From Escherichia phage EO1, in the sequence record OQ223305.1: a stretch of DNA of 64,000 nt. The stretch is one strand, 5' to 3'. Below are positions 43,054-64,000 of the stretch, piece after piece; position 1 is the first letter of the stretch, and every line of letters begins with the position of its first letter. Made by a program: the position numbers and the translations under genes. The notes under the pieces are model-generated. The model was not told the DNA's origin and searched no databases. It worked only from the letters and a program-made list of their open reading frames with translations.

Positions 43054-43065
43054 TTTCACAAAGTT

Positions 43066-43095
43066 GTTTACATGCTGATGAGGTAGTGATACTAT
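43066..43095 (+). promoter_or_regulatory. T4-type early promoter (GTTTAC-N18-TACTAT) with stem-loop
   Basis: aagttGTTTACa...tgaTACTAT; flanking stem tgatgag/ctcatca. Confidence 0.55.
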
Positions 43096-43125
43096 TATCT
43101 CATCAAAATTAATTGGGAAAATAAA

Positions 43126-43383
43126 ATGAAAACTTTCAAAGAGTTTGCTACAAAAACTACTATCACTGAATCTTCTCACGGTATGGAAGTAAAGCTTGGA
43201 ATGGCTTTAGCTGAAGCTGAGCGTCTTTTCTCTCGTATTAAAGAACTTGCTGCTGCAGTCGATCCTTCATCTTTTAAAGGAGACCAAACTAAAGTTAAAG
43301 CACTTTTAGCGTTATGCTCCGATGCAGGAGAAATTGCTAAAAATGGTTCTAAGATGAAGAAACGATTAGAAGATTTAAAATAA
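43126..43383 (+). CDS. Internal protein (IPI-like) with capsid targeting sequence
   Basis: 85 aa; N-terminus MKTFKEFATKTTITE resembles T4 CTS MKTYQEFIAE with an I-x-E gp21 cleavage motif; position of T4 ipI. Confidence 0.65.
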   Translation: MKTFKEFATKTTITESSHGMEVKLGMALAEAERLFSRIKELAAAVDPSSFKGDQTKVKALLALCSDAGEIAKNGSKMKKRLEDLK

Positions 43384-43395
43384 TTTCACAAAGTT

Positions 43396-43425
43396 GTTTA
43401 CATAGGGTTTTAGTTGTGATACTAT
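43396..43425 (+). promoter_or_regulatory. T4-type early promoter (GTTTAC-N18-TACTAT) with stem-loop
   Basis: Near-identical copy of the 43066 element; stem atagggt/accctat. Confidence 0.55.
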
Positions 43426-43453
43426 TACCCTATCAACTACTGAGGAGAATAAA

Positions 43454-43639
43454 ATGAAACGCTGTGAATTAATTCGAAATGTTGCTATTGCAATTTCTGC
43501 TTCTGCTTTTAGTTTTTCAATGTTTGTTGGATTTATATGCGGATTATTGACTACAGCAGAAAATGTTTTTTCACTTGTAGTAGCATTTTTAATTGGTTTA
43601 ATTGCTATCGTTATGGATAAAATTTCTAAAGGTGAATAG
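43454..43639 (+). CDS. Small membrane protein (2 predicted TM helices)
   Basis: 61 aa hydrophobic ORF with RBS gaggagaataaaatg. Confidence 0.5.
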   Translation: MKRCELIRNVAIAISASAFSFSMFVGFICGLLTTAENVFSLVVAFLIGLIAIVMDKISKGE

Positions 43640-43640
43640 A

Positions 43641-44021
43641 ATGTACAAAGTGTATGCGGATTATCAGGCTAATCCATCTGAAAAACCAGGTTGTCAAATT
43701 GGATGGGCTCATGATACTTTGCTTGAAGCAGTAGATGCTGCTCAAAAATTGGGATATAAATATGTAGAGATTGTTCAACCGTCAGGAAAAGTTATTACTC
43801 TTGAAGAGTTCAATAACATTAAACCAAACTTTTTACTTTTTGCAGGTGATAATTATTATCCTCGTGGTGGATATGCTGATTTAATAGCGAAAGCCGCTAC
43901 CGAAGATGAACTCCGTGACATTATCAAAGAAAATGAAAACAAACCAGATTATGGTTCTAATCGCTTTGATTGGTGGCAAATTGTAAATGCCAATACTCAC
44001 ACTATTGTTGATGAAGGCTGA
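43641..44021 (+). CDS. Hypothetical protein
   Basis: ORF 43602-44021 trimmed to Met after upstream stop (MYKVYADYQ...), 126 aa. Confidence 0.55.
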   Translation: MYKVYADYQANPSEKPGCQIGWAHDTLLEAVDAAQKLGYKYVEIVQPSGKVITLEEFNNIKPNFLLFAGDNYYPRGGYADLIAKAATEDELRDIIKENENKPDYGSNRFDWWQIVNANTHTIVDEG

Positions 44022-44023
44022 TA

Positions 44024-44311
44024 ATGATTCTTTATGCTAAAGTATCATCCATTGAAAATGGATATAAATACGATCAAGACGCGGCTAAAGCTTTGATTGA
44101 TGATTATGGTATTTTAACATATTTTGAAGTTGAAAAGGTTTACATTGACCGTTCATCTTCACAAGTTAAATTAGTAAAGGAAGACCGTAAATTTAATACA
44201 GTAAATTTTGATTTCTTCATTAAAACAGAAAAAGGTCCTCTTGAATATGATATTTTCAAGAATCCTTTGAGTCTTGAATGCATCGTAAATATGTATTATC
44301 ATAAATGGTAA
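44024..44311 (+). CDS. Hypothetical protein
   Basis: 95 aa ORF. Confidence 0.5.
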   Translation: MILYAKVSSIENGYKYDQDAAKALIDDYGILTYFEVEKVYIDRSSSQVKLVKEDRKFNTVNFDFFIKTEKGPLEYDIFKNPLSLECIVNMYYHKW

Positions 44312-44408
44312 ATATGCTTTAAGAATTATTTGTTATTATTAACTCATATCGCACTGATTAATACCCTCTATCATCAAGGGTTCTTGCTTAAGAGCCTTTG
44401 TTAATAAT

Positions 44409-44481
44409 TGGGAATTAGCCAAGTTGGTAAGGCACTGGATTTTGATTCCAGGATGCAAAGGTTCGAGTCCTTTATTCCCAG
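44409..44481 (+). tRNA. tRNA-Gln (anticodon TTG)
   Basis: Cloverleaf: acceptor tgggaat/attccca, anticodon loop tTTTGAt, T-arm GGTTCGAGTCC. Confidence 0.85.
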
Positions 44482-44482
44482 C

Positions 44483-44569
44483 GCGAGAATGGTCAAATTG
44501 GTAAAGGCACAGCACTTAAAATGCTGCGGAATGATTTCCTTGTGGGTTCGAGTCCCACTTCTCGCACCA
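44483..44569 (+). tRNA. tRNA-Leu (anticodon TAA), type II with CCA encoded
   Basis: acceptor gcgagaa/ttctcgc, loop cTTAAAa, long variable arm, GGTTCGAGTCC. Confidence 0.85.
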
Positions 44570-44574
44570 AATTT

Positions 44575-44648
<74 letters not shown>

Positions 44649-44694
44649 ATTTATGACTCGTCGTGAGACGCTCAGTTCTTTATTAGGGACTGAT

Positions 44695-45303
44695 ATGCAT
44701 TTTTATCTTTATAAAATAACAAATAAAATTAATAATAAAGTTTATATTGGTGTGCATTCTACCGAAAATTTAGATGATGGATATATGGGTTCTGGCAAAT
44801 TATTAAAAAGAGCCCAAGACAAGTATGGTATAGAAAATTTCTCTAAAGAAATATTAGAGTATTTTGATGATAAAGAATCTATGCTTGAAGCCGAGAAAAA
44901 TATTGTCACAGAAGAGTTTTTAAATAGACCAGACGTGTATAATTTAAAACTTGGCGGTGAAGGTGGATGGGACCATATAAATAATTATCCTATGACAGAT
45001 CAGCAACGTGAATTAATTTCATTGGGTGTTAAAAAGGCGCATTCTAACGGAAAATTAAAAGGATGGTCTTCAAATGGATTAATGAAGAATGGCTTTGCTG
45101 GTAAAACTCATTCTCAAGAAGCTAAACGTAAAATAGCAAAAGCAAACGAAGCAAAAGTTTCTGCGGATGAAAGAAAAAGAAGAATAGAAATTTCTAAATT
45201 ATATGATTTTTCTAAGCGTGGTGAATTATCTAAATATGCTAAGCATATTGGCGTAAGTCATACTCAAGCAAAAAGAATTCTAAATCAAATTAACAATATA
45301 TAA
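44695..45303 (+). mobile_element. segB: GIY-YIG homing endonuclease SegB inserted in the tRNA cluster
   Basis: ORF 44653-45303; GIY-YIG motif YLYKITNKINNKVYIGVHS...GYMGSG; start likely the second Met (MHFYLYK). Confidence 0.75.
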
Positions 45304-45308
45304 TATTT

Positions 45309-45398
45309 GGAGGCGTGGCAGAGTGGTTTAATGCACCGGTCTTGAAAACCGGCAGTCGCTCCGGCGACTCATAGGTTCAAATCCTATCGCCTCCGCCA
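45309..45398 (+). tRNA. tRNA-Ser (anticodon TGA), type II
   Basis: acceptor ggaggcg/cgcctcc, loop cTTGAAa, long variable arm, GGTTCAAATCC. Confidence 0.85.
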
Positions 45399-45403
45399 GT
45401 TTT

Positions 45404-45479
45404 GCTGATTTAGCTCAGTAGGTAGAGCAACTCACTTGTAATGAGAATGTCGGCGGTTCGATTCCGTCAATCAGCACCA
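45404..45479 (+). tRNA. tRNA-Thr (anticodon TGT)
   Basis: acceptor gctgatt/aatcagc, loop cTTGTAa, GGTTCGATTCC. Confidence 0.85.
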
Positions 45480-45480
45480 A

Positions 45481-45555
45481 GGCCCTGTAGCTGGAAGGTT
45501 CAAGCAAGCGACTCATAATCGCCAGATGGTGGTTCAATTCCACCCAGGGCCACCA
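45481..45555 (+). tRNA. tRNA with CAT anticodon (Ile2/lysidine-type or Met)
   Basis: acceptor ggccctg/cagggcc, loop cTCATAa, T-arm GGTTCAATTCC; the T4 counterpart is the AUA-reading tRNA-Ile. Confidence 0.75.
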
Positions 45556-45568
45556 AATTAAGAATTAA

Positions 45569-45655
45569 GGGGAGTTATCCCGTAGAGGTAGCGGTGTGGA
45601 CTGTAAATCCATTGTCATTGCGACTCGGGTGGTTCGACTCCATCACTCCCCACCA
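45569..45655 (+). tRNA. tRNA-Tyr (anticodon GTA), type II
   Basis: acceptor ggggagt/actcccc, loop cTGTAAa, long variable arm, GGTTCGACTCC. Confidence 0.75.
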
Positions 45656-45659
45656 ATTT

Positions 45660-45734
45660 GGATGTGTAGCTCAATGGCAGAGCGATCGCCTGTTAAGCGA
45701 TTGGTTATAGGTTCGAATCCTATCACGTCCGCCA
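45660..45734 (+). tRNA. tRNA-Asn (anticodon GTT)
   Basis: acceptor ggatgtg/cacgtcc, loop cTGTTAa, GGTTCGAATCC. Confidence 0.8.
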
Positions 45735-45848
45735 AATTTGTGACAACTGTCACATTAATATCTACTTGACGCGATTATAGGGGTTGAACTGATCACTCTT
45801 CTCTTAATTTCGTGTGAAGACATCTTGATTGTTGGAGTAGGTATTAAT
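45735..45848 (+). other. AT-rich 114-nt spacer inside the tRNA array with a short hairpin (gtgac-aact-gtcac); possible small stable RNA or internal promoter
   Basis: No tRNA fold and no ORF; occupies the position where T4 carries small stable RNAs within its tRNA cluster. Confidence 0.25.
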
Positions 45849-45924
45849 GTGGCCGTAGTTCAGTTGGTAGAACTCGAGATTGTGATTCTCGTAGTCATGG
45901 GTTCGACCCCCATCGGTCACCCCA
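45849..45924 (+). tRNA. tRNA-His (anticodon GTG)
   Basis: acceptor gtggccg/cggtcac, loop tTGTGAt, GGTTCGACCCC; no encoded G-1. Confidence 0.75.
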
Positions 45925-45928
45925 ATTA

Positions 45929-46004
45929 CGGGGCATAGCTCAGAAGGAAGAGCAAGGACCTTCTAAGTCCTAGGTCGTAGGTTCGATCCCTACTGCCTCG
46001 ACCA
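45929..46004 (+). tRNA. tRNA-Arg (anticodon TCT)
   Basis: acceptor cggggca/tgcctcg, loop cTTCTAa, GGTTCGATCCC. Confidence 0.85.
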
Positions 46005-46022
46005 ATTATAAGTGAGGAAAAT

Positions 46023-46373
46023 ATGAAAGGTAATGTTTATTTAGTAGTTCATGATTTAACATTTTACTTCAATGAATATGAAAAACATATCTCATTTCGT
46101 GAAATTAATTTACTTTATCAACACGCGGATTATATTTATATTCAAAACGAATTTGGTCATTGGCAATTTCTCAAAAATCGTTCATTTGGCTTAGATGGTT
46201 ACGAATACTTTGAACGTAAAGACCTTTTAGATAAAATTCCGTTATCTACGCAATATCAAAATCACAAATCTTTATATAAATGCCGTCCAATTCGAAATGT
46301 TGAATCCGCGTATGAAGCAATTGATTTATGGCGTGAACGCCGTAAACAGATTTATGCTTTAAAAGAATATTAA
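46023..46373 (+). CDS. Hypothetical protein
   Basis: 116 aa ORF with RBS gaggaaaatATG directly after tRNA-Arg. Confidence 0.55.
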   Translation: MKGNVYLVVHDLTFYFNEYEKHISFREINLLYQHADYIYIQNEFGHWQFLKNRSFGLDGYEYFERKDLLDKIPLSTQYQNHKSLYKCRPIRNVESAYEAIDLWRERRKQIYALKEY

Positions 46374-46682
46374 GAAGCCGGGTCGCTACCGGTAAGTCGT
46401 CGGACTGATGTTCCCTGAGTAAGGAATTGCGTTAATAATCTTTGCGTTTATTGATGCCCTCTTACATCACAGCAGAAACGGCGCACCGAATTATCGATTC
46501 GAGGAAATATCTTTGCCGTAAGCCGAGTAGCGTTTTTGACGGAACGTTCGGATATGGTCGAGATATGGCCTTTTAAAAATATTGAGTAGCGTCAACTGCT
46601 TAATAACCGGGTTCGAATCCCGGCGTTTCGTACAAACACTTGCCTTAGCAGGTGGAACCCCGACAAGGTTGCCGCAAGGCTT
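46374..46682 (+). ncRNA. GC-rich ORF-free structured region; candidate stable RNA or degenerate tRNA-like element
   Basis: About 310 nt with no ORF of 60 aa or more on either strand, GC-rich against an AT-rich genome; contains tRNA T-arm-like ccgGGTTCGAATCCcgg and a repeated gagtagcgt motif. Confidence 0.3.
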
Positions 46683-46720
46683 AGCCCCGACCGAAAGGTT
46701 GGGGCTTTTTGGTATAAATA
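46683..46720 (+). terminator. Strong rho-independent terminator (46683-46711) followed directly by late promoter TATAAATA (46713-46720)
   Basis: agccccgacc-gaaa-ggttggggct plus ttttt; then gGTATAAATAtag. Confidence 0.65.
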
Positions 46721-46760
46721 TAGTAGTATATTAAATCCACGAATTAAAACAGGAAATAAG

Positions 46761-47234
46761 ATGAAATCATATACTCAATTTTTAAATGAAGCGGTGTTAA
46801 ATGAAGCATCTAGCACCGAAATTCAAGCTGTCGCAAAAGCAGCCATTGCAGCGGGTAAATATTCTTATAAAGATGCTTCTGATGAATCGCGATTCCAGTT
46901 CGCACGCGACATGAAAGCGGAAGGATTTACGGGAAATGCAGTTAGTATGGCCTGGAAAAGTTTAGTTGCTACTGGCGCTGCTTTTGCAAAGGCTTCGGGT
47001 AAACCTGCTCCTAAAGCAGATCCTAAAGCTGCACAAGAAAAAAATATTGTTAAAGGAATTATCGCTAAATATGAAGCTATCCTTAAAGAGCTTTTAGTAA
47101 TCAAAACCGAAGGCCAAAAGCTAGCTCGTGCTTATAGTTTCAAAGATAACCCACATGCTCATGACCTAGAGTATGTTGAAGATCTCCAAAAAATCATCAA
47201 AGACCGCATTTGGTCTGCTAAACAAATCAAATAA
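46761..47234 (+). CDS. Internal-protein-like protein with capsid targeting sequence
   Basis: 157 aa; N-terminus MKSYTQFLNEAVLNE resembles the T4 CTS (L-x-E cleavage motif); Ala/Lys-rich. Confidence 0.55.
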   Translation: MKSYTQFLNEAVLNEASSTEIQAVAKAAIAAGKYSYKDASDESRFQFARDMKAEGFTGNAVSMAWKSLVATGAAFAKASGKPAPKADPKAAQEKNIVKGIIAKYEAILKELLVIKTEGQKLARAYSFKDNPHAHDLEYVEDLQKIIKDRIWSAKQIK

Positions 47235-47251
47235 CATTCTTAGCCCTAGCC

Positions 47252-47280
47252 GAAAGGTTGGGGCTTTTTGGTATCTAGGC
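47252..47280 (+). terminator. Rho-independent terminator, near-duplicate of the 46683 terminator
   Basis: agccctagc-cgaaa-ggttggggct plus ttttt. Confidence 0.65.
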
Positions 47281-47401
47281 CTTTCCAGGCCTCTCTAGAC
47301 ATCATTTAGTTTCTACCCTTTATAATATATTATCCTATCCTTTGATTTCCCCTCCCTGCCCTAGAATTCCCCAAAACTTTTTAAAAATTTTTCACAAAAC
47401 T

Positions 47402-47431
47402 GTTTACACCCTTGTCATTCCATGGTACTAT
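47402..47431 (+). promoter_or_regulatory. T4-type early promoter (GTTTAC-N18-TACTAT) plus conserved leader ACAACTATCAACTAC
   Basis: ctGTTTACa...catggTACTATacaactatcaactact. Confidence 0.55.
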
Positions 47432-47474
47432 ACAACTATCAACTACTGATACAGAAAACAACTTGGAGAATGAA

Positions 47475-47738
47475 ATGGATAATTATGGTGAACTGTTCAA
47501 CTTCTTTATGAAATGTGTTTCAGAAGATTTTGGTCGTACAGTGAATGATATTAAAGTTATCGGTCCTGACCATCCGATGTTTGAAACTTACGCAGTAATG
47601 GGTAATGAAGATGGTCAGTGGTATACTGTAAAGGTTGTGATTAACATGTTCACAGCAGAAGGTTATGTTAAACTGTCTTCTAAAGTTTACCATGATAACG
47701 ACGAAATCGCAGAAGAATATTTCAATAATATGAAATAA
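47475..47738 (+). CDS. Hypothetical acidic protein
   Basis: ORF 47412-47738 trimmed to Met after RBS ggagaatgaa (the N-terminal extension is translated promoter and leader); 87 aa. Confidence 0.55.
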   Translation: MDNYGELFNFFMKCVSEDFGRTVNDIKVIGPDHPMFETYAVMGNEDGQWYTVKVVINMFTAEGYVKLSSKVYHDNDEIAEEYFNNMK

Positions 47739-47806
47739 TTGTGTACAAACACCAAGGATGGTGTTATTATAGACTTATCAAAACAAATACAGAAACGGAG
47801 AAATAA

Positions 47807-47983
47807 ATGACTACTTTAATTATTTGGTTCGACGAGAATGAAGAAACATACTGCGTGAATATTGGTGAAAGCCCAATGCCAGAGTTTGAATCTTCAGATA
47901 AAAATTCGGTTGTATCCTGGGCTGAAGGTTATAAAGCAGCAAAAGGCGATGTCGAAATAGTTTATAAACTCTTTGGAGTATAA
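47807..47983 (+). CDS. Hypothetical small protein
   Basis: 58 aa ORF with RBS acggagaaataaATG. Confidence 0.4.
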   Translation: MTTLIIWFDENEETYCVNIGESPMPEFESSDKNSVVSWAEGYKAAKGDVEIVYKLFGV

Positions 47984-48028
47984 TACTCCCACGGATTATA
48001 AAACCCTTAATTAACTAAAGGAAATGCT

Positions 48029-48622
48029 ATGAACATGCTGAAGAAAATTGTTGAGTTTATTCGCACTAAACTTGGTTCTGCTATGGCTAAAAATCTATCT
48101 GTTGAAGAGCAGTATACTGCCGCAGCAGCAAAATTGCTTGATAAAATTAAAGATCTAAAAACTGCTTCTGTTAAATCTATTAATGAAGAAAAGCGTATTC
48201 GTGAACTTATTGTCGAAAAGAATAAGCAGGCCGAATCAAAAGAGCGTGAAATTCGCAAGCTCCTTTCGGAAGGTCAAGATGTAACAATGCATGCTAAACT
48301 TGGTTTACTATATCGTCGAACAGCTGAGCAGTTGACTACTAAAGCTGATGGTTATGCTGAAATGCGAATTGAAATCGCCAAGAAAGTAGTTGAGTTAGAT
48401 GATGCTCGCCAAGAACTTGCAGTTAAATTGGAATATATCCGTGAAACTCGCGCCGCGAATGCCCTTGGAATTAGTACTGCTGATGATGTAGTTGAAATTG
48501 CAGCACTGACTAAGGTTGATATTGAAGATACTCTTGCTCGAGTTGAAACCTTTAATGGTAATATTTCTGGGGTTGAAACTACCTCTGCCGATGTTCAGGA
48601 ATATATTAATTCTCTGAAATAA
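48029..48622 (+). CDS. Coiled-coil protein of unknown function
   Basis: 197 aa, long heptad-rich helical segments, E/K/R-rich. Confidence 0.55.
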
Positions 48623-50911: not shown

Positions 50912-51442
<531 letters not shown>

Positions 51443-51446
51443 AGTT

Positions 51447-51476
51447 GTTTACTTTCTCCTAGAATTGTGATAGTAT
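51447..51476 (+). promoter_or_regulatory. T4-type early promoter (GTTTAC-N18-TAGTAT)
   Basis: aaagttGTTTACtttctcctagaattgtgaTAGTATattc. Confidence 0.5.
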
Positions 51477-51501
51477 ATTCACAGTTACTTGGAGGGATAA
51501 A

Positions 51502-51918
51502 ATGACTCGTATTAATTTGACTTTAGTATCTGAACTTGCTGATCAACATTTAATCGCAGAATACCGTGAATTGCCGCGTGTTTTTGGTATAGTTCGTAAG
51601 CATGTGGCAAACGGTAAGCGCGTTAAAGATTTTAAAATATCTTCTAAATTTATTTTAGGTTCTGGTCATGTTACGTTCTTTTATGATAAGTTAGAATTTT
51701 TGCGAAAGCGTCAATCGGACATTATAACGGAATGCTTAAAACGCGGGTTTAGTATAAAAGATACTGAAGTTCCTGACATCGGCGATATTCCAGCAGAATG
51801 GAAAAATGATTATAATCCATGCAAATCAGCTATTAAATTGAGTCAACAACGACTTGATGAAAAAATTTTAATGAAACCACATTGGTATAAGTATTACGGT
51901 AAAAATATTTACATTTAA
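51502..51918 (+). CDS. denV: Endonuclease V (pyrimidine dimer DNA glycosylase, DenV)
   Basis: 138 aa; [17 protein letters not shown]...[11 protein letters not shown] matches T4 endo V from memory. Confidence 0.9.
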
Positions 51919-51927
51919 AGGAAACCC

Positions 51928-52401
51928 ATGAAAACATATCAAGAATTTATTACTGAAGCAGCTATTAATTCTCAAATTATTGCTGAATCTTTTACTGATC
52001 TTTTGAAATTTAAAAAAGGTCAAAAAATCACTGCTGTATTGGATGATGGTACAGAAGTTGAGATGGATGTACAGGGATATAATTATGCAGTAGATGGAAA
52101 ACTGTATAATAAATCTCATGCTAAATTTGATTCATTTGACGACTTTGTTAATACAGTTGAAGATGAAAAAACTCGTCGATCCATTGCAACTGGTGATGCT
52201 AAGGTTCTTATGGCACATGGTCATGAACGCATTCGCGCTAAACAGAATAAAATGGGTGAAGATAATTTTGCATTAGTTGGTTATCAATCTGGTAAACAAA
52301 CTTATGGCTATCAACGTACTGCTACCATGTATAATAAAAATGGTAAAATCGCCTTTGTGAATAGCAAAGGTTCTGTTCAGTATGTCAAATCATTCAAATA
52401 A
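51928..52401 (+). CDS. Internal protein (IPII/IPIII-like) with canonical capsid targeting sequence
   Basis: 157 aa; N-terminus MKTYQEFITE near-identical to T4 CTS MKTYQEFIAE; position of T4 ipII/ipIII. Confidence 0.7.
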   Translation: MKTYQEFITEAAINSQIIAESFTDLLKFKKGQKITAVLDDGTEVEMDVQGYNYAVDGKLYNKSHAKFDSFDDFVNTVEDEKTRRSIATGDAKVLMAHGHERIRAKQNKMGEDNFALVGYQSGKQTYGYQRTATMYNKNGKIAFVNSKGSVQYVKSFK

Positions 52402-52554
52402 GCAAATAAGAAATATGGGAACAAGCTGGACCTCATGATTCTATGAGGGATTCCCGCCAACCTGTAATAAGGTCGAGCCCAAGTGCGGTAATGGGTAAAT
52501 ACAGAAATGGAAAATTCATGCGCCATGGAATGGCCCAAATTTAGAGATAACAAA

Positions 52555-53094
52555 ATGAGAACATTTTTAACTGGTCCTTATCTATCCCTGATGAATGCTT
52601 TTACACACCATTCTGATGCTAGAGTAGAAGAAATTTGTAAAAACGATTATATCCCACCATTTGAAGACTTACTCAAGCAGTATTGCACACTTCGATTAGA
52701 TGGTGGCAGACAATCCGGTAAATCAACTGCTGTGACTAACTTTGCTGCTAATTGGCTGTATGATGGTGGAACAGTTATTGTTCTTTCTAATACTTCAGCT
52801 TACGCTAAAATTTCTGCAGGCCACATTAAAAAAGAATTTTCTCGTTATTCTGGCGATGATATTCGATTCCGCTTATTTACCGATTCTGTCCGTAGTTTTA
52901 TCGGTAATAAAGGAAGCAAGTTCAGAGGTTTATCGCTTTCACGAATTTTGTATATAATTGATGAGCCTGTTAAAGCTCCTGATATGGATAAAATTTACGA
53001 TATTCATATTGAAACTGTACATTACTGTTGCAATAGTAAATGCTGCATTGGTGGTATTACTCGTCCACAGTTTTTCATAATCGGAATGCAATGA
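52555..53094 (+). CDS. Small P-loop NTPase-like protein
   Basis: Walker A-like GGRQSGKST and Walker B-like ILYIIDEP; ORF 52507-53094, start tentatively Met at 52555. Confidence 0.45.
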   Translation: MRTFLTGPYLSLMNAFTHHSDARVEEICKNDYIPPFEDLLKQYCTLRLDGGRQSGKSTAVTNFAANWLYDGGTVIVLSNTSAYAKISAGHIKKEFSRYSGDDIRFRLFTDSVRSFIGNKGSKFRGLSLSRILYIIDEPVKAPDMDKIYDIHIETVHYCCNSKCCIGGITRPQFFIIGMQ

Positions 53095-53420
53095 TGACAG
53101 ACACACAGCTTTTCGAATATCTTTATTTTTCGCCAAAAACTATTAAAAATAAATTGGTGAATCATTTTGAAATTTTGGCAAATAATAACGTCTTGAGCGA
53201 ATTTTATCCTAAGCAATACAAATTACAAAAAGGCGTATTCAAAGGATGCAGAGTTTTGTGCACTGCTCCTAATGCAAGATTAATGAATAAAATTCCATAT
53301 TTTACCATGGAATTTATTGATGGACCTTTTAAAGGACTAATCACCCAAAGTTTAATGGCATATGATTCTGAGCCATTTTTAATTAAAGAACAGTCTTGGA
53401 TAAATTTATTTTCTAATTGA
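53091..53420 (+). CDS. Hypothetical protein
   Basis: ORF 53040-53420 trimmed to ATGATG at the upstream stop; 109 aa. Confidence 0.45.
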   Translation: MMTDTQLFEYLYFSPKTIKNKLVNHFEILANNNVLSEFYPKQYKLQKGVFKGCRVLCTAPNARLMNKIPYFTMEFIDGPFKGLITQSLMAYDSEPFLIKEQSWINLFSN

Positions 53421-53426
53421 GGTTAT

Positions 53427-53789
53427 ATGAAAGCATATCAAATTCTTGAAGGCACACATAAAGGTACTATTTATTTTGAAGATGGTATTCAAGCACGAAT
53501 TATTGTCTCCAAAACCTTTAAAGAGGACTCTTTTGTAGACCCAGAAATTTTCTACGGTTTGCATGCCCGTGAAATTGAAATTGAGCAACAGCCTACAGTT
53601 AAAATTGAAGGTGGTCAACACCTGAACGTTAACGTTCTGCGTCGTGAAACTCTGGAAGATGCAGTTAAGCATCCGGAAAAATATCCGCAGCTGACCATCC
53701 GTGTATCCGGTTATGCAGTTCGCTTTAACTCTCTGACTCCGGAACAGCAGCGCGACGTTATCGCTCGTACCTTTACCGAGAGTCTGTAA
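53427..53789 (+). CDS. Autonomous glycyl radical cofactor (GrcA/YfiD-like; counterpart of T4 Y06I)
   Basis: C-terminal 60-odd residues ...[61 protein letters not shown] carry the glycyl radical motif RVSGY and match E. coli GrcA from memory. Confidence 0.8.
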
Positions 53790-54010
53790 TGGCAAAGATA
53801 ATTATTGAAGGTTCTAAAGATGTGCTAAATGCTTTCGCCGAGTGGTTTAGTAATTCAGGCGAACAGCAATTTAATGAAGCATGGAATATGGGTGATATTG
53901 ATGGAATTTATCCTACGACAGAAATTTCTGCTCAGGGATATGGCATTCATGAACCTATTCGTTTAGTTGAATATGATTTAGGTACTGGTGAGGAAGTAAA
54001 ATATGATTGA
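53789..54010 (+). CDS. Hypothetical protein
   Basis: 73 aa ORF, ATGG overlap with upstream stop. Confidence 0.45.
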   Translation: MAKIIIEGSKDVLNAFAEWFSNSGEQQFNEAWNMGDIDGIYPTTEISAQGYGIHEPIRLVEYDLGTGEEVKYD

Positions 54011-54269
54011 AGATATTAAGGGTTATAAGCCACATACTGAAGAGAAAATCGGTAAAGTGAATGCTATCAAAGATGCTGAAGTTCGTTTAGGACTTATCTT
54101 TGATGCTTTATATGATGAATTCTGGGAAGCACTAGATAATTGTGAAGACTGTGAATTCGCAAAGAATTATGCTGAAAGTCTTGATCAGTTAACTATTGCT
54201 AAAACGAAACTCAAAGAAGCCAGTATGTGGGCTTGTCGTGCTGTGTTCCAACCAGAGGAAAAATATTAA
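54003..54269 (+). CDS. Hypothetical protein
   Basis: 88 aa ORF. Confidence 0.45.
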
Positions 54270-54547
54270 TGGCTCAATTAAGCGCAGGGTTTGGTTATGA
54301 GTATTATACTGCCCCTCGTCGTGCATCTGTTGCTCCTAAGAAAATTCAAAGTCTTGATGACTTCCAAGAAGTAGTCCGTAAAGCTTTCCAGGACTATGCA
54401 CGTTATCTTAAAGAAGATTCACAGGACTGTCTCGAAGAAGATGAAATTGCTTACTATACGCAGCGTCTTGAACAGCTCAAAAATCTACATGAGGTTCGTG
54501 CAGAAGTTTCAAAGTCTATGAATAAATTGATTAGATTTAAAGAATAA
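54269..54547 (+). CDS. Hypothetical protein
   Basis: ORF 54227-54547 trimmed to Met after RBS ([13 protein letters not shown]), 92 aa. Confidence 0.45.
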
Positions 54548-54549
54548 CT

Positions 54550-54579
54550 GTTTACTTTTCCTCTTGACTGTGGTATAAT
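54550..54579 (+). promoter_or_regulatory. T4-type early promoter (GTTTAC-N18-TATAAT, TG-extended) with RBS-sequestering stem
   Basis: ctGTTTACttttcctcttgactgtggTATAAT; stem cctcttgactg/cagttaagagg. Confidence 0.6.
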
Positions 54580-54606
54580 TTTTCTATCAGTTAAGAGGAG
54601 AATAAC

Positions 54607-55068
54607 ATGACTATCAATACAGAAGTTTTTATCCGTCGAAATAAGCTTCGTCGTCACTTTGAGTCGGAGTTTCGTCAAATTAACAATGAGATTCGTGAGG
54701 CATCAAAAGCAGCAGGGGTCTCATCGTTTCATCTAAAATATTCTCAGCATCTTCTTGATCGTGCAATTCAACGGGAGATTGATGAGACATATGTTTTTGA
54801 ATTATTCCACAAAATAAAAGACCATGTTTTAGAAGTTAATGAATTCCTGAGTATGCCTCCGCGTCCTGACATTGACGAGGATTTTATTGATGGGGTTGAA
54901 TATCGTCCTGGGCGTTTGGAAATTACAGATGGAAATCTTTGGCTTGGATTTACAGTTTGTAAGCCTAATGAGAAGTTCAAAAACCCGTCACTTCAATGCA
55001 GGATGGCAATTATCAACAGTCGTCGTTTACCAGGAAAGGCTTCTAAAGCAGTAATTAAAACTCAATGA
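54607..55068 (+). CDS. regB: Sequence-specific endoribonuclease RegB
   Basis: 153 aa, T4 RegB length; early promoter upstream; synteny near denV. Confidence 0.7.
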   Translation: MTINTEVFIRRNKLRRHFESEFRQINNEIREASKAAGVSSFHLKYSQHLLDRAIQREIDETYVFELFHKIKDHVLEVNEFLSMPPRPDIDEDFIDGVEYRPGRLEITDGNLWLGFTVCKPNEKFKNPSLQCRMAIINSRRLPGKASKAVIKTQ

Positions 55069-58705: not shown

Positions 58706-58709
58706 CATT

Positions 58710-58733
58710 AGTCTCCTTCGGGAGACTTTTTTC
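58710..58733 (+). terminator. Rho-independent terminator
   Basis: agtctcc-ttcg-ggagact plus tttttt. Confidence 0.7.
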
Positions 58734-58741
58734 ATTTTACC

Positions 58742-58771
58742 GGTTTACTTTCCATTTGAGCTGTGATACTA
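58742..58771 (+). promoter_or_regulatory. T4-type early promoter (GTTTAC-N18-TACTAT)
   Basis: gGTTTACtttccatttgagctgtgaTACTATacaacc. Confidence 0.55.
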
Positions 58772-58800
58772 TACAACCATCGGATAAAGAGGAGAACATC

Positions 58801-58989
58801 ATGAAAATTGAAGCACTTAATCAAGAAGGAAATATCTACGTCATTATTAATGGTGATTTTTTCGTCGACATGGATGAAGTTACTAGTGAAGAACTTGTAG
58901 AACTTCTTAAGAAACGTTATAATATGTGTGATGAAGTTGCAACTCACATGGCATGTGCAATATTCTCTCTTTCATATGTGGTGGAATAA
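58801..58989 (+). CDS. Hypothetical protein
   Basis: ORF 58756-58989 trimmed to Met after RBS gaggagaacatcATG; 62 aa. Confidence 0.45.
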
Positions 58990-59192: not shown

Positions 59193-59194
59193 GT

Positions 59195-59389: not shown

Positions 59390-59552
59390 AAAGCAGATGT
59401 TTTTAATGAAACTAATTGAAGAATATGCTAATGCAGTTTCTGACTATGAATGTTCTTCTCGGGAAAGAGGTACAGCTTTCGCCAAAGAAGAAATGAAAAT
59501 CATGGTTGATGCTCACACAAAGCTTCAGAATTTTATTGAAAACGTCATTTAA
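59379..59552 (+). CDS. Hypothetical small protein
   Basis: 57 aa ORF below cutoff, overlaps upstream stop. Confidence 0.35.
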   Translation: MKTEKQMFLMKLIEEYANAVSDYECSSRERGTAFAKEEMKIMVDAHTKLQNFIENVI

Positions 59553-59554
59553 TG

Positions 59555-59584
59555 GTTTACAAGTTGGCAAGGTTATGGTATAGT
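59555..59584 (+). promoter_or_regulatory. T4-type early promoter (GTTTAC-N18-TATAGT) with flanking stem ttggca/tgccaa
   Basis: gGTTTACaagttggcaaggttatggTATAGTaatcttgtcaactgccaagg. Confidence 0.5.
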
Positions 59585-59716
59585 AATCTTGTCAACTGCC
59601 AAGGAGAAGAGAATGAAAGTTTTGTTTGTTATATATGTGATGATTCAATATAATTACCCAATGTTTACTTATAATTTGGTGAATAACATTATTGATATTA
59701 TTCAAAGGAGTATGTA

Positions 59717-59902: not shown

Positions 59903-59903
59903 T

Positions 59904-60446
59904 ATGAAAGCTGTAATTGAAACAACTGATTTGTTCGGTAATCTAGTTATCGAAAAACGCGGTAATGTATATGTTCTGACGCAGGAAGACGATAGTATTA
60001 TTATTCTTCCTATGGAACTGGCTGCGATTTTATCTTATGCTCCCTCAAGAGTTACCGGTGTAACTAATATTACAGACGACCTCCAAGTTCGTTTTTATCG
60101 TGGCCTTTACGGCGGTAATATTGAAACTGAATTTATGTGTCTTTCTATCAACAATTGGGCAACATTCGTTGCCAAGGTGAAAGAATTCTTGGAATCTGAA
60201 ACAGTCGAAACACCCGAAAAGGCTAAACTTCAATGGGCTAAAGATCGCGGTGCTAGCATTATTAATCCAGTAGCTGCAAATTATACTACGACTTTGGATG
60301 TCAAGACTTCTTATGAAGATGGCGATGTCGTACTTGTTCGCCAAATTGATGATTCTCGAGCACATATTGTCACATTTACCAAAGATGAAGCTATTGCACT
60401 AAAGACTTATCTTGATTCTGTCATTCCAACTATGATTTCAAAGTGA
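59904..60446 (+). CDS. Hypothetical protein (paralog A)
   Basis: ORF 59892-60446 trimmed to MKAVIETT; C-terminus resembles that of the next gene. Confidence 0.5.
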   Translation: MKAVIETTDLFGNLVIEKRGNVYVLTQEDDSIIILPMELAAILSYAPSRVTGVTNITDDLQVRFYRGLYGGNIETEFMCLSINNWATFVAKVKEFLESETVETPEKAKLQWAKDRGASIINPVAANYTTTLDVKTSYEDGDVVLVRQIDDSRAHIVTFTKDEAIALKTYLDSVIPTMISK

Positions 60447-60452
60447 GGAAAT

Positions 60453-60974
60453 ATGTTTATTTCAAGTGGAAGTGGTTTAATTCGTGTTGAATTTAAAAAT
60501 GACATCTTTCTTATTCAAGGAGATGATATTATTAAAATGAGTTATGACGAAATCAAGAAAATTTGTCATGCTCTTGAAAGTCATGGAAAAGTGAACGCTG
60601 TTATTGATATTGGCGATTTATGGGTGACACTTTATGAAGTATCCGAAGGATTTAACATTGAAGATGAAAATAACATTTTAGCTATTGATAAAAGAACTGA
60701 TTTGTTTGATGTATTAAAAGTTTATGAACAGTCAAATGGCGGAAGAAAAGCTGTATTGATTTATCAAAAACCGCATTCATGTGGAACTGCTTCAATCATT
60801 TCAAATATTGAAGGCGAAGTTGATACTTATATGTGTGTTTTAAAAGCTGGTGGTGACCGTCATCCGGATTTTATTTCTATTCGTCAAAACAATGGAGAAA
60901 TTTCATTGTCAAAATCAGAAGCTGAAGCTATGATTAAGTATTTAACAACCGTTACGCCTTCAATGAAAGGATAG
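60453..60974 (+). CDS. Hypothetical protein (paralog B)
   Basis: 173 aa; C-terminal ...SKSEAEAMIKYLTTVTPSM resembles ...TKDEAIALKTYLDSVIPTM of paralog A. Confidence 0.5.
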   Translation: MFISSGSGLIRVEFKNDIFLIQGDDIIKMSYDEIKKICHALESHGKVNAVIDIGDLWVTLYEVSEGFNIEDENNILAIDKRTDLFDVLKVYEQSNGGRKAVLIYQKPHSCGTASIISNIEGEVDTYMCVLKAGGDRHPDFISIRQNNGEISLSKSEAEAMIKYLTTVTPSMKG

Positions 60975-60976
60975 TT

Positions 60977-61291
60977 ATGATTATTAATGAAAACTCTTGG
61001 CACTATAAATTATTCAAATTGTTTAACGATGAATGGCAACGACCTAAGACACTATGTGCATACTTTTGGTCTATTGTTATCCCTACATTTTTCGTTTCTT
61101 TTTTCGGATGCACTATACTCGCAGGTCTAACTATCATCTGTGCAGAAATCATACAGAAATGGCTTATTTTTGGTAGTTTATGGACTCTTATTCCATCAGC
61201 ATTTATACTTGCTATTTTGCTTGTTTTACTTATTATCGGTTCATTTGTTATTCCTGTACATTTGCATGAAAAATATAAAGATTATAAATGA
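60977..61291 (+). CDS. Small membrane protein (2-3 TM helices)
   Basis: 104 aa, strongly hydrophobic. Confidence 0.5.
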   Translation: MIINENSWHYKLFKLFNDEWQRPKTLCAYFWSIVIPTFFVSFFGCTILAGLTIICAEIIQKWLIFGSLWTLIPSAFILAILLVLLIIGSFVIPVHLHEKYKDYK

Positions 61292-61434
61292 AAAAAGGAT
61301 TATGCTTTACACGTAGAAAATATTGATAGAGCGTATAAAGGTTTACCTCCTATTCAACCCAAGAAATCTATTATCGTCGAATTTTTAAAAGCGCGTAAAG
61401 CTAAAGTATGTCCTGTTATTGAATATAAGGCTGA

Positions 61435-62448
61435 ATGATGAAAACAGTAATGAAAAGTTATTTTGGTAGTCATCTTTATGGAATTTCTACCCCAGAATCT
61501 GATGTAGATTTTAAAGAAATCTTTGTTCCTCCTGCTCGCGATATTCTTATTGGAAATGTCAAAGAGCATATGAGTAAAAACACTAACAACACATCATCTA
61601 AAAACACTAAAGATGATATTGACCATGAACTATACAGTCTTAAGTATTTCTTTAAATTAGCAGCAGATGGTGAAACTGTAGCGTTAGATATGCTTCACAC
61701 TCCGCCTGAACTAGTGGTTAAATCTGATTTGCCTGATGTATGGAAGTTTATTCAAGACAATCGTTCTCGTTTTTATACGACTAACATGAAATCCTACTTA
61801 GGATATGTTCGCAAGCAAGCTTCTAAATACGGTGTTAAGGGTTCTCGTTTGGCTGCATTACGTGATGTATTGAAAGTAGTTAATCAAATCCCCGATCAGT
61901 GGGTTGATTACCGAGAAGATGGAACACAAGGACAACGTCGCACTAAAGTTGAAGATATTAAGCATCGTCTTCCAGAAAACGAATTCTGTGAATGGGTGTT
62001 CCATAATCATGAGAAAACAGGTCCACAAACGTTCTACACTGTATTGGGTCGTAAATATCAGACAACGCTTTCTCTTATTGAGCTTAAGCAGTCTTTGAAT
62101 AAACTTGATGCTGAATATGGTGAACGCGCTCGTAAGGCTGAAGCCAATGAAGGTATTGACTGGAAAGCTCTGAGCCATGCTTGTCGTGGTGGACTCCAAC
62201 TATTGGAAATTTACAAAACTGGCGACTTAGTTTATCCACTCCAAGATGCTCCATTTATTCTCGACGTGAAGCTGGGTAAACATCCATTTAAAACTGTTCA
62301 AGAGTTTTTGGAAGATGTGGTCGATCAAGTAGAAGCAGCATCTACTGAAGCTTCTAAGAATGGTATGCCTAAAACAGTAGATATGAGCTTTTGGAATAAT
62401 TTCCTCGAACAGGTTTATCTTGAAAACCACCGAAGTTATTATAAATGA
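61435..62448 (+). CDS. Pol-beta-superfamily nucleotidyltransferase-like protein
   Basis: N-terminal motif FGSHLYGISTPESDVDF fits the hG[GS]x9-13Dh[DE]h NTase signature; 337 aa with helical C-terminal region. Confidence 0.5.
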   Translation: MMKTVMKSYFGSHLYGISTPESDVDFKEIFVPPARDILIGNVKEHMSKNTNNTSSKNTKDDIDHELYSLKYFFKLAADGETVALDMLHTPPELVVKSDLPDVWKFIQDNRSRFYTTNMKSYLGYVRKQASKYGVKGSRLAALRDVLKVVNQIPDQWVDYREDGTQGQRRTKVEDIKHRLPENEFCEWVFHNHEKTGPQTFYTVLGRKYQTTLSLIELKQSLNKLDAEYGERARKAEANEGIDWKALSHACRGGLQLLEIYKTGDLVYPLQDAPFILDVKLGKHPFKTVQEFLEDVVDQVEAASTEASKNGMPKTVDMSFWNNFLEQVYLENHRSYYK

Positions 62449-62449
62449 T

Positions 62450-62474
62450 AGGGAGCCTTCGGGCTCCCTTTTTA
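62450..62474 (+). terminator. Rho-independent terminator
   Basis: gggagcc-ttcg-ggctccc plus ttttt. Confidence 0.7.
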
Positions 62475-62497
62475 TTTCAAAAATTTTTCACAAAGTT

Positions 62498-62527
62498 GTT
62501 TACAAGCATAAAGCTTTATGGTACTAT
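62498..62527 (+). promoter_or_regulatory. T4-type early promoter (GTTTAC-N18-TACTAT) plus conserved leader
   Basis: caaagttGTTTACaagcataaagctttatggTACTATacaactatcaactg. Confidence 0.55.
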
Positions 62528-62561
62528 ACAACTATCAACTGATACGGATTTGGAGAATAAA

Positions 62562-63530
62562 ATGAAAACTGTAACTATCAATAAGGGTATCTACTTCGGT
62601 AAAGAAATCTCTGGAACTTTTGAGCTCTTAGGCGAATGGTTCCCAGATAATGCTCCGGTAGATGCACAAGGAGATGGTAAAGTTTTTGTTGAAATTGACG
62701 GTAAGCGTCGCGGTGTTTGGGTTTACAAATCAGACATTTCATATGATGGTGTAAAAGTTGAAGAAGTTAAAGAATCGTATGAAGATATGAAAACCCGCAT
62801 TAATAAAAGATTTAATGTTATGGGAATGATGACGAATGGTATTATTAATGGAAATATTCGTTCATTAATTATCTCTGGCGCAGCAGGTATTGGTAAAACG
62901 TATTCTTTAGATAAAGCTTTAAATAAAGCAAATGATATTGGATACATTGAATATAAAAGCATTAATGGTAAAATCTCTGGTATTGGTCTTTATGAGCAGC
63001 TTTGGAATAATCGTGAAGAGAATTCTGTCCTTTTGATTGATGATGTGGATGTTTTCTCTGATATGGACATTCTTAATCTTCTGAAAGCTGCTCTGGACAC
63101 TGGAGAGACCCGTAAAGTCTGCTGGAGCACCGCATCTTCTTACTTAGAAGAAAAAGGCATTGAGCGTGAGTTTGAATTTAAAGGAACGATTGTTTTTATC
63201 ACAAACGTTGACATTGACCGCGAATTAGACCGTGGTACTAAACTTGCTCCACATTTACAAGCATTAGTGTCCCGCTCAGTTTATTTGGATTTGGGTGTTC
63301 ACACTAATGAAGAAATTATGGTCAGGGTTGAAGATGTTATTCTTTCAACTGACATGATGCAAAAGCGTGGTCTTTCTGATGAAGAAACTTATAAAGCATT
63401 ATCATGGATGAAAGTCAATGTTAATCGTTTACGCAATGTTTCACTGCGTACTGCTCTTTATCTTGCTGACTTTATTATGACCGACAAAAACGGTTGGGAA
63501 GAAATTGCTACGGTTACTCTTCTGAAATAA
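62562..63530 (+). CDS. P-loop (AAA-like) ATPase
   Basis: Walker A SGAAGIGKT and Walker B VLLIDDVD; ORF 62445-63530 trimmed to Met after RBS ggagaataaaATG; 322 aa. Confidence 0.55.
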   Translation: MKTVTINKGIYFGKEISGTFELLGEWFPDNAPVDAQGDGKVFVEIDGKRRGVWVYKSDISYDGVKVEEVKESYEDMKTRINKRFNVMGMMTNGIINGNIRSLIISGAAGIGKTYSLDKALNKANDIGYIEYKSINGKISGIGLYEQLWNNREENSVLLIDDVDVFSDMDILNLLKAALDTGETRKVCWSTASSYLEEKGIEREFEFKGTIVFITNVDIDRELDRGTKLAPHLQALVSRSVYLDLGVHTNEEIMVRVEDVILSTDMMQKRGLSDEETYKALSWMKVNVNRLRNVSLRTALYLADFIMTDKNGWEEIATVTLLK

Positions 63531-63632
63531 ATTCATAAGAGGACTTCTAAGACAAAAAGGCAGTTCAGAAATAGATTATATGGACTGCCATCAAAAAGAT
63601 GACTAGAATTAAACTGGTAAATGGAGGTAAAG

Positions 63633-63935
63633 ATGTTATACTCAAAAGCTCGTGAAATTTATGAAACTAAAATTAAAGACGCGGTTCATCAGTTCGCAAC
63701 GACAATGCGTTGGACAAATGACTGGGAATACTCCAAGAATCATAAGAAGCCCTTGGTGACAAGAAAGGCTCATATGTTAGTGTTAATAGACCGTGAGCAG
63801 ATTAAAGCCCGAGAAGCCCTCCAGAATCATAAAAAGGCTGCCTTTGAATGGTTTATGGATAACACTGCTCCTGAGACTAAGAAAGCAGTGAGCGCTTGGT
63901 TCAGTGGAAAAAATTGTGAAAGAAGTTTCTTTTAG
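63633..63935 (+). CDS. Hypothetical protein
   Basis: ORF 63621-63935, start probably Met at 63633 after RBS ggaggtaaag. Confidence 0.45.
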   Translation: MLYSKAREIYETKIKDAVHQFATTMRWTNDWEYSKNHKKPLVTRKAHMLVLIDREQIKAREALQNHKKAAFEWFMDNTAPETKKAVSAWFSGKNCERSFF

Positions 63936-63937
63936 TT

Positions 63938-63967
63938 GTTTACAAGACTGTTCCTCTGTGGTACTAT
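63938..63967 (+). promoter_or_regulatory. T4-type early promoter (GTTTAC-N18-TACTAT) inside an RBS-sequestering stem-loop
   Basis: GTTTACaagactgttcctctgtggTACTATacaactatcaactacggaggaacag; stem ctgttcctc/gaggaacag. Confidence 0.55.
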
Positions 63968-64000
63968 ACAACTATCAACTACGGAGGAACAGAAAATGAA

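Follow-up and report, generated by a model that had tools for sequence, protein, structure and literature searches.

Probable T4-type early promoters as dispersed repeats in Escherichia phage EO1, and as occasional crossover sites in its relatives

Why does one short, promoter-like sequence return nine times, in nearly the same form, between positions 43,054 and 64,000 of a stretch of phage DNA? The stretch is 64,000 nucleotides from Escherichia phage EO1 (sequence record OQ223305.1), here called the window. A preliminary description saw in it nine stereotyped early promoters with stem-loops, likened them to the promoter-early stem-loops (PeSLs) proposed as recombination hotspots in T4-like phages, and held that each precedes a variable gene. 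The answer favored here, with a probability of roughly 0.9, is that these nine elements, plus a degenerate tenth at 47741, are T4-type early promoters, and that T4 recombination occasionally crosses over between copies, as in the PeSL model. Because the elements match the published consensus sequences, the original identification is correct and the phenomenon itself is already known: the promoter consensus, the PeSL concept, and the shuffling of internal-protein (IP) loci have all been published. The word "hotspot" fares less well.

Nine early promoters

The pattern GTTTAC-N18-TABWRT occurs exactly nine times in the 64-kb window, always on the + strand and always between genes. Dinucleotide-preserving shuffles predict 0.19 occurrences, and none of 100 shuffles reaches nine; the nine copies with an 18-nt spacer are thus amply borne out. 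GTTTAC begins at 43066, 43396, 47402, 51447, 54550, 58743, 59555, 62498, and 63938. Eight of these coordinates had been given correctly; the sixth, placed at 58742, should be one base further on. Scanning both strands of the window with a weight matrix derived from the nine copies brings up nothing further above 12 bits, and a relaxed scan for spacers of 17-19 nt adds no + strand GTTTAC copy, leaving the spacer at exactly 18 nt in all nine. A generic sigma-70 scan is uninformative (84 matches, 78.7 expected); significance is reached with the T4-specific pattern alone. In a blind search for repeats, the three largest families of direct repeats in the region, with lengths of 36-77 nt, are these elements. 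An Rfam search of 42.5-64 kb reports ten tRNAs only, with no curated family for the element leaders.

The copies share much beyond their hexamers. Each has TG at -15/-14, making an extended -10 element, and the -10 boxes are TACTAT (six copies), TATAAT, TAGTAT, and TATAGT. The stretch from -60 to -37 averages 79% A+T, against 64.5% region-wide (P<1e-4); only the element at 58743 departs from this (58%), its upstream stretch being taken up by a terminator. An ATG start codon follows the -10 box by 25-43 nt in all nine, and all but the first (43066) carry a GGAG Shine-Dalgarno (SD) sequence. The predicted +1, 7 nt past the -10 box, is A in eight of nine, often within ATCAAC. ATCAA stands at exactly this position in 21 members of a wider set of 56 non-redundant GTTTAC-N18-TAnnnT promoters, drawn from T4, twelve relatives, and 22 T4-like viral contigs. 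Two other shared features had been overstated: the upstream ttcacaaagtt, ascribed to many copies, is exact in three (43055, 43385, and 62487) and near-exact in a fourth (47391), and the downstream leader ACAACTATCAACTAC is exact in two (47432 and 63968), with its first 12 nt in a third (62528).

The T4 early consensus places GTTTAC at -36..-31, an A-rich UP-like region at -40..-44, and a GT-rich stretch 5' of -12 (Nolan 2006, PMC1524935), an arrangement termed "UP/-35/TGn/-10" (Hinton 2010, PMC2988021). The underlying compilations are those of Liebig & Rueger 1989, Wilkens & Rueger 1996, and Miller et al. 2003, as summarized in PMC2988021 and PMC1524935. A dRNA-seq preprint gives the early -10 motif as TGTG(A/G)TA(C/T)(A/T)AT. 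The nine elements match this published consensus, as the term "stereotyped early promoters" had implied.

They match the PeSL description as well. PeSL promoters of the PST/T4 pair have the consensus TTTACW-N17-TAYWAT (Comeau 2014, PMC4122927); TTTACW is found in all nine elements, and TAYWAT strictly in seven (the exceptions being TAGTAT and TATAGT) and loosely in nine. PeSLs fall into five subclasses by the position of the stem-loop, most commonly between the -35 box and the -10 box or overlapping the latter (Arbiol 2010, PMC2839356). These position classes fit here too: a hairpin surrounds the -10 box in six of the nine elements, and an intrinsic terminator stands 15, 28, or 136 nt upstream of each of the remaining three. 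The general PeSL layout fits likewise, with the preceding gene's stop codon in the A/T-rich 5' part and an SD and start codon at the 3' side; each element is intergenic and lies in the hyperplastic region.

Orthology points the same way. The window is the early region of a Tequatrovirus (T4-like phage): some 390 phage records span 80% or more of 43-64 kb, and among the matching records 457 show 95-99% identity. Gene order is collinear with T4 from 57B to nrdC.8, within the hyperplastic block 57B-nrdC, and the + strand is the direction of early genes. The genes 3' of the elements are, in order, an ip5-like gene, trna.4, e.8, denV, regB, mobD.5, mobD.2, nrdC.10, and nrdC.8; Pfam matches bear out the assignment of RegB and of DenV, a pyrimidine-dimer glycosylase. 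All nine elements have a T4 orthologue at the same place, with identities over -66..+26 ranging from 76/92 to 92/92. The 92/92 copy is that of regB, identical to a documented T4 early promoter.

Promoter activity is accordingly predicted from the consensus and from T4 literature and orthology. Right after infection, host sigma-70 RNA polymerase in its unmodified form would read each element, which would head an early transcription unit on the + strand, starting 7 nt past the -10 box, with a short leader that would carry the GGAG SD. GGAG Shine-Dalgarno sequences are the target of RegB.

In T4, the corresponding predicted starts are, in window order, 73903, 73536, 70660, 66462, 62761, 58744, 57954, 55348, and 53907.

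The nine promoters are as follows.

43042..43128, + strand: early promoter 1, between 57B and the ip5-like internal-protein gene, UP region present; GTTTAC 43066-43071, TG plus TACTAT 43090-43095, predicted +1 43102, SD GGGAAA, ATG 43126; its orthologue, the T4 ipI promoter region (T4 73939), is 88/92 identical.

43372..43456, + strand: early promoter 2, between the ip5-like gene and trna.4; GTTTAC 43396, TACTAT 43420-43425, predicted +1 43432 (ATCAACTAC...), GGAG SD, ATG 43454.

47378..47477, + strand: early promoter 3, 5' of e.8; GTTTAC 47402, TACTAT, predicted +1 47438, the leader ACAACTATCAACTAC, ATG 47475.

51423..51504, + strand: early promoter 4, between e and denV; GTTTAC 51447, TAGTAT, predicted +1 51483, GGAG SD, ATG 51502; orthologue, the T4 ipIII promoter (T4 66498).

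54526..54609, + strand: early promoter 5, 5' of regB; GTTTAC 54550, TATAAT, predicted +1 54586, GAGGAG SD, ATG 54607; the copy identical to the T4 regB promoter.

58728..58803, + strand: early promoter 6, 5' of mobD.5; GTTTAC 58743, TACTAT, predicted +1 58779, ATG 58801.

59531..59615, + strand: early promoter 7, 5' of mobD.2; GTTTAC 59555, TATAGT, predicted +1 59591, ATG 59613.

62474..62564, + strand: early promoter 8, 5' of nrdC.10; GTTTAC 62498, TACTAT, predicted +1 62534, leader ACAACTATCAAC, ATG 62562.

63914..63998, + strand: early promoter 9, 5' of nrdC.8; GTTTAC 63938, TACTAT, predicted +1 63974, GGAGG SD, ATG 63996.

A scan that allowed one mismatch in the -35 hexamer and required TGn yields the tenth, degenerate element, which had been overlooked. 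It has TG at -15/-14 and a stem, ACACCA/TGGTGT, inside its spacer. In nine of the 12 relatives, collinearity is lost exactly at 47770, the end of its -10 box. The same scan gives one more match, inside gene e at 51338, and none on the minus strand. The match in e (51338-51367, + strand) reads GTTAAC-N18-TATAAT, preceded by TGG, and lies in the 3' part of this lysozyme gene; it may be an internal promoter or no more than a coincidence.

Close to the tenth element is a degraded copy, an intact version of which is present in phage AndreasVesalius. Positions 47960-47984 of this copy overlap the stop codon of a 58-aa open reading frame (ORF) at 47807-47983.

47717..47809, + strand: tenth, degenerate element; GTGTAC 47741-47746, N18, TATTAT 47765-47770, ATG 47807.

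47960..48031, + strand: degraded element; GTTTAT, 13-nt spacer, TATAAT 47979-47984, then the e.6 leader.

For annotation the set is useful, since it supplies leaders and predicted start sites for ten early transcription units. Sequence alone thus suffices to recover the early promoters of a T4-like phage; the gain for biology is small, because the consensus, PeSLs, and IP-locus shuffling are already in print.

Crossovers between promoters

If these repeats take part in recombination, gene-content boundaries in related phages should be found inside some of them. The 42.4-64 kb region was aligned to 12 relatives: T4, RB51, AndreasVesalius, PE37, T6, CrRp10, Sf25, JE01, Pu-Krd-SF7, SHFML-26, ECO07P4, and e11/2. 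The 105 collinearity breaks of at least 40 bp reduce to 76 distinct breakpoints. Sixteen of these lie inside the nine elements, which make up 6% of the length, and cassette boundaries fall inside six of the nine.

At the first pair of promoters, the body of the ip5-like gene (43160..43378) is replaced in T4, PE37, and JE01, and AndreasVesalius, T6, and SHFML-26 have an extra ip gene inside element 43396, with a 24-nt overlap. In T4, ipIII and ipII are inserted within the leader of element 51447. At element 58743, both the terminator and the -35 hexamer are lost in Sf25. Element 62498 has insertions inside it in AndreasVesalius, JE01 (at 62550-62570), and ECO07P4, and a deletion in CrRp10.

A clean junction is that of T6, which lacks 51460..54549. 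Its junction between e and regB is a chimera of elements 51447 and 54550: it follows 51447 upstream and through GTTTACTTT, then 54550 onward, with one leader mismatch. The switch point puts the crossover in the -35 hexamer, and 3088 bp are removed. This junction is present in three T6 records, from at least two independent submissions, among 507 matching records. The only other full-length match among the 507, T4_583L (MZ375356), has a different junction. T4_583L is a laboratory mutant from a CRISPR genome-reduction study. It has lost denV..vs.3 by a crossover between the denV and regB promoters, and ipIII by a crossover in a 51-nt leader and N-terminus common to ipIII and ipII; the deletions probably formed by repair of Cas9 breaks with endogenous repeats. 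(The junction stretch is 370-850 of MZ375356, corresponding to T4 65.3-66.5 kb and 62.8 kb.) Chimeric promoters also occur in the ip locus.

The elements have thus demonstrably served as crossover substrates in some lineages, with homologous recombination as the presumed cause of the junctions. At 30-77 nt, they are the longest dispersed direct repeats of the hyperplastic region, and T4 recombination would therefore occasionally cross over between copies; according to the published PeSL model, such an event would delete, insert, or swap the genes in between. Mini-circles between flanking PeSLs have been detected in RB49/phi1 (Arbiol 2010, PMC2839356). A substrate for such an event exists here: the upstream 32 nt of promoter 2 (43372-43403) are identical to 43042-43073 of promoter 1, 330 bp away. 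T6, which is natural, and T4_583L, from the laboratory, both show multi-kilobase deletion by crossover between two different early promoters, and together may merit a short follow-up.

How much further does the evidence go? Several observations weigh against a special role. Events are found at seven of nine promoter junctions and at 26 of 50 others (Fisher P=0.14); when only junctions with a spacer of at least 40 nt are compared, the figures are seven of nine and six of eight (P=0.66). Most breakpoints, 60 of 76 (79%), are outside the elements, at overlapping start/stop junctions, tRNA gene ends, terminator repeats, and segB-like or seg-like homing-endonuclease genes. Elements 59555 and 63938 have no event in the 12 relatives, and the events at the 47402 junction are in terminator repeats, outside the promoter. 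The strong "hotspot" wording was therefore rejected: the boundaries inside six elements stand, but without an excess over other intergenic spacers. In this 12-relative sample, breakpoints are no commoner at the elements than in the other intergenic DNA of this hyperplastic region.

Nor does each element precede a variable gene. Of the eight downstream genes that could be scored, only two, the ip5-like gene and denV, vary in presence, compared with 19 of 41 other genes; trna.4, e.8, regB, mobD.5, mobD.2, and nrdC.10 are present in all 12 relatives. The promoters mostly head conserved early units.

These same figures lend themselves to a plainer account, in which the elements are promoters and nothing else: the likeness of the repeats could reflect nothing more than constraint by polymerase binding, and boundaries would coincide with them through indels that are tolerated only in intergenic DNA. 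The parity with other spacers of at least 40 nt, the majority of breakpoints elsewhere, the two elements with no event, and the six invariant downstream genes all suit it. It does not readily accommodate the exact two-promoter chimeras or overlaps of 14-24 nt (T6 e|regB, the ip-gene insertion, JE01 62550-62570, and T4_583L), which are the signature of a crossover within a repeat, beyond a merely tolerated position; the RB49/phi1 mini-circles likewise tell against it. This account is possible, but we think it rather unlikely.

Movement of cassettes by a dedicated, site-specific recombinase or nuclease that targets the elements, raised as speculation by Arbiol 2010 (PMC2839356), is highly improbable and was rejected: the crossover points differ between events (-35 hexamer in T6, spacer in T4_583L, -10 box or leader at the ip locus, leader or SD in JE01), as fits general homologous or microhomology recombination with no fixed cleavage site, and no recombinase gene is associated with the elements.

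Terminators provide a second set of repeats. Two copies of a direct repeat that contains an intrinsic terminator are 36 nt long and 92% identical, and flank the cassette of ORF 46761-47234.

46680..46715, + strand: terminator-containing direct repeat, copy 1.

47239..47274, + strand: terminator-containing direct repeat, copy 2, 136 nt 5' of promoter 3; site of the cassette junctions of T4, T6, JE01, SHFML-26, and CrRp10.

ORF 46761-47234 is absent in T4, T6, JE01, and SHFML-26, with the junction inside the terminator repeat. At the second repeat, CrRp10 and ECO07P4 carry an insertion of 667 bp. Here terminators seem to play the part that promoters play in the shuffling described above.

Hairpins around the -10 box

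The stem-loops pose a separate question. Each element was folded from -36 to the start codon. Significant hairpins form in six of the nine, with z-scores from -2.3 to -5.2. All six hold the -10 box in the loop and have a 5' arm upstream of the predicted start site; in three (51447, 54550, and 63938) the 3' arm contains the SD. No such hairpin forms on folding 47402 (z -0.56), 58743 (z -0.30), or 62498 (z +1.1), and each of these three copies has an intrinsic terminator upstream, at 136, 15, and 28 nt, respectively. The statement that several elements are embedded in stems with a ribosome-binding site in the 3' arm therefore applies to three elements, with a hairpin but no covered SD in three more. 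The stem ctgttcctc/gaggaacag, offered as its example, is real; its site is 63948-63956 / 63984-63992 rather than 63953-63999.

43076..43105, + strand: promoter 1 hairpin, arms 43076-43088 / 43093-43105, enclosing the -10 box, SD outside; -14.8 kcal/mol, z -3.46, P=0.004 against spacer shuffles.

43402..43433, + strand: promoter 2 hairpin, ATAGGGT/ACCCTAT with the -10 box in the loop, z -2.26; the arm is found in relatives also, at a different spacer position.

51453..51497, + strand: promoter 4 hairpin, spacer anti-SD UUUCUCC paired with GGAGGGA (SD), an inner stem bracketing the -10 box; -18.8 kcal/mol, z -4.0.

54556..54602, + strand: promoter 5 hairpin, spacer UUUUCCUCUUGACUGUGG paired with CAGUUAAGAGGAGAA, which includes the SD; -22.4 kcal/mol, z -4.82.

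59562-59576 / 59583-59597, + strand: promoter 7 hairpin, enclosing the -10 box, SD 5 nt 3' of the stem; -19.0 kcal/mol, z -3.85.

63948..63992, + strand: promoter 9 hairpin, spacer arm 63948-63962 paired with 63978-63992, which includes the SD; -23.2 kcal/mol, z -5.18.

58710..58727, + strand: intrinsic terminator, AGTCTCCTTCGGGAGACT then a T run, 15 nt 5' of promoter 6.

62450..62469, + strand: intrinsic terminator, AGGGAGCCTTCGGGCTCCCT then a T run, 28 nt 5' of promoter 8.

Spacer and leader are matched to one another. Cognate spacer/leader duplexes average -13.9 kcal/mol, and non-cognate ones -8.5 (permutation P=5e-5). In the wider set of 56 promoters, hairpins are significant in 19 at P<=0.01 and in 28 at P<=0.05. 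The arms covary between paralogues and genera: GGGCC/GGCCC, GGGTC/GACCC, GGCTC/GAGCC, and TAGGGT/ACCCTA. An anti-SD motif in the spacer (CTCC, CCTC, or TCCT) is a minority feature, present in only 11 of 56 promoters, against 8.6% expected. The T4 denV and ipII promoters also have the SD inside the 3' arm.

The T4 denV promoter (T4 ~65.36-65.41 kb) is missed by the N18 pattern because its GTTTAC-to-hexamer spacer is 17 nt. It contains a nested hairpin in which the spacer CTCCTGTAG pairs with CTACAGGAG, the SD.

What might such a hairpin do? Since its 5' arm lies upstream of the start site, it would form only in read-through RNA from upstream promoters, and there it would sequester the SD in three copies. 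This suggests translational insulation: in read-through RNA, the 5' arm would pair with the leader or SD and block both ribosome entry and cleavage by RegB, whereas transcripts that start inside the loop would lack the 5' arm and hence be translated, an early counterpart of the T4 late-promoter switch. The geometry fits, with 5' arms at -30..-12, upstream of the predicted +1, and so do the covered SD sequences in the window and in T4, the frequency of anti-SD motifs in spacers, and the covariation of the arms. Three stem substitutions that separate the window from T4 result in sense-strand G.U wobbles, and hairpins are mostly missing below an upstream terminator (1/9 versus 27/47, Fisher P=0.025), a count that orthologues inflate and that rests on few independent loci. 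Moreover, the precedent of late promoters has been described (PMC3014915). Against insulation, the SD lies within only three of the six hairpins; the rest stop at -6..+3 and would leave the ribosome site free. In addition, in a comparison aimed at telling a role in RNA from one in DNA, 32 hairpins have no bias in stability between the sense and antisense strands (Wilcoxon P=0.10; G.U 23 versus 23). Overall, insulation is a tentative possibility.

A different role, proposed for PeSLs, is attenuation or termination of upstream transcription, which would isolate each cassette transcriptionally. One PeSL stem-loop gave strong, terminator-like attenuation in a lacZ assay (Arbiol 2010, PMC2839356), a result that speaks for attenuation and, as a different role, against translational insulation, and the PeSL papers (PMC2839356, PMC4122927) read the stem-loops only as terminators. 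The canonical intrinsic terminators upstream of three elements, two at 15-28 nt and one at 136 nt, are consistent with this, and their mutual exclusivity with embedded hairpins fits a shared insulating role. However, the six embedded hairpins have no U tract, being followed by AAAAUG, UAACAUG, or UAAAAUG, and are therefore not canonical intrinsic terminators. As an explanation of these hairpins, attenuation is unlikely.

Translational insulation could be extended into a general proposal, itself doubtful. In T4-like phages, about a third to half of early promoters would be built inside a hairpin, its 5' arm in the promoter spacer and its 3' arm in the discriminator or leader, and about a fifth would have the SD covered by the 3' arm; such hairpins would replace upstream terminators as a general device to uncouple genes from read-through, and their arms would be kept matched during cassette exchange. 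An insulating role for promoter-embedded hairpins is possibly the only angle on these elements not found in the accessible literature, whose reviews give late-promoter cases only. As a by-product of the analysis, the hairpins (widespread, covarying, sometimes SD-sequestering, and seemingly replacing upstream terminators) may be worth a short follow-up.

Other features of the region

Several neighbors of the promoters differ between the window and its relatives. A segB-like gene for a GIY-YIG homing endonuclease (44653-45303) is located between tRNA-Gly and tRNA-Ser; segB of T4 and T6 is elsewhere within the tRNA cluster. Many of the collinearity breaks cluster at the ends of the segB-like gene and at tRNA gene boundaries. 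The window has ten tRNA genes versus eight in T4, and 46373-46715 is a homologue of the T4 small stable RNAs rnaD and rnaC (97.7% identical), with no Rfam match.

Between nrdC.10 and nrdC.9, RB51, T6, and JE01 carry a 724-bp seg-like endonuclease gene. The corresponding site in the window (63509-63538) is empty and has no promoter element. Finally, within 60977-61434, a 143-nt gap separates the 104-aa ORF 60977-61291 from nrdC.11; here relatives annotate a 462-nt ORF abutting nrdC.11, and a truncation or frameshift in the window may account for it.

Comparison with known systems

With T4 early promoters the elements share every main feature: GTTTAC at -36..-31, a spacer of 17 nt when counted from TTTACN, TGn, TA(C/T)(A/T)AT, and an A-rich UP region, all on the early strand, directly 5' of early genes, and at the same positions in T4. 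There is no substantial difference, apart from two -10 variants in the window (TAGTAT and TATAGT), where the promoters are known from sequence.

Like PeSLs, they are composites of an A/T-rich region, early promoter, stem-loop, SD, and ATG, placed between genes of the hyperplastic region; the stem-loop overlaps the -10 box or sits upstream as a terminator, and indel junctions of relatives fall inside the elements. They are not the PeSLs of RB49/phi1 themselves. Arbiol 2010 (PMC2839356) regards the T-even elements as analogues rather than homologues: these have T4-type boxes and weaker, A/T-richer stems, whereas RB49/phi1 PeSLs have perfect sigma-70 boxes. The association with indels also differs, being no stronger here than at other intergenic spacers.

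The analogues noted by Arbiol 2010 are the T-even IP-locus elements of Repoila et al. 1994, as cited in PMC2839356 and PMC4122927. Elements 43066 and 43396 resemble them in flanking an internal-protein gene, and element 51447 opens a second IP locus (ipIII/ipII in T4, Ip4 here). As in IP-locus shuffling, relatives have one to three different ip genes between tandem promoter copies. Only three of the nine elements, however, are in IP loci.

The hairpins recall the control of T4 e, soc, 49, and I-TevI (McPheeters et al. 1986, as reviewed in PMC3014915). Those genes use late (gp55) promoters for temporal control, whereas the promoters here are early, and the SD, by prediction, is covered in three of nine. 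In both, the promoter occupies the 5' strand or loop of a hairpin and, where the SD is covered, the SD lies in the 3' strand; long upstream transcripts would be silent for the downstream gene here, as they are in T4, and promoter-proximal ones translated.

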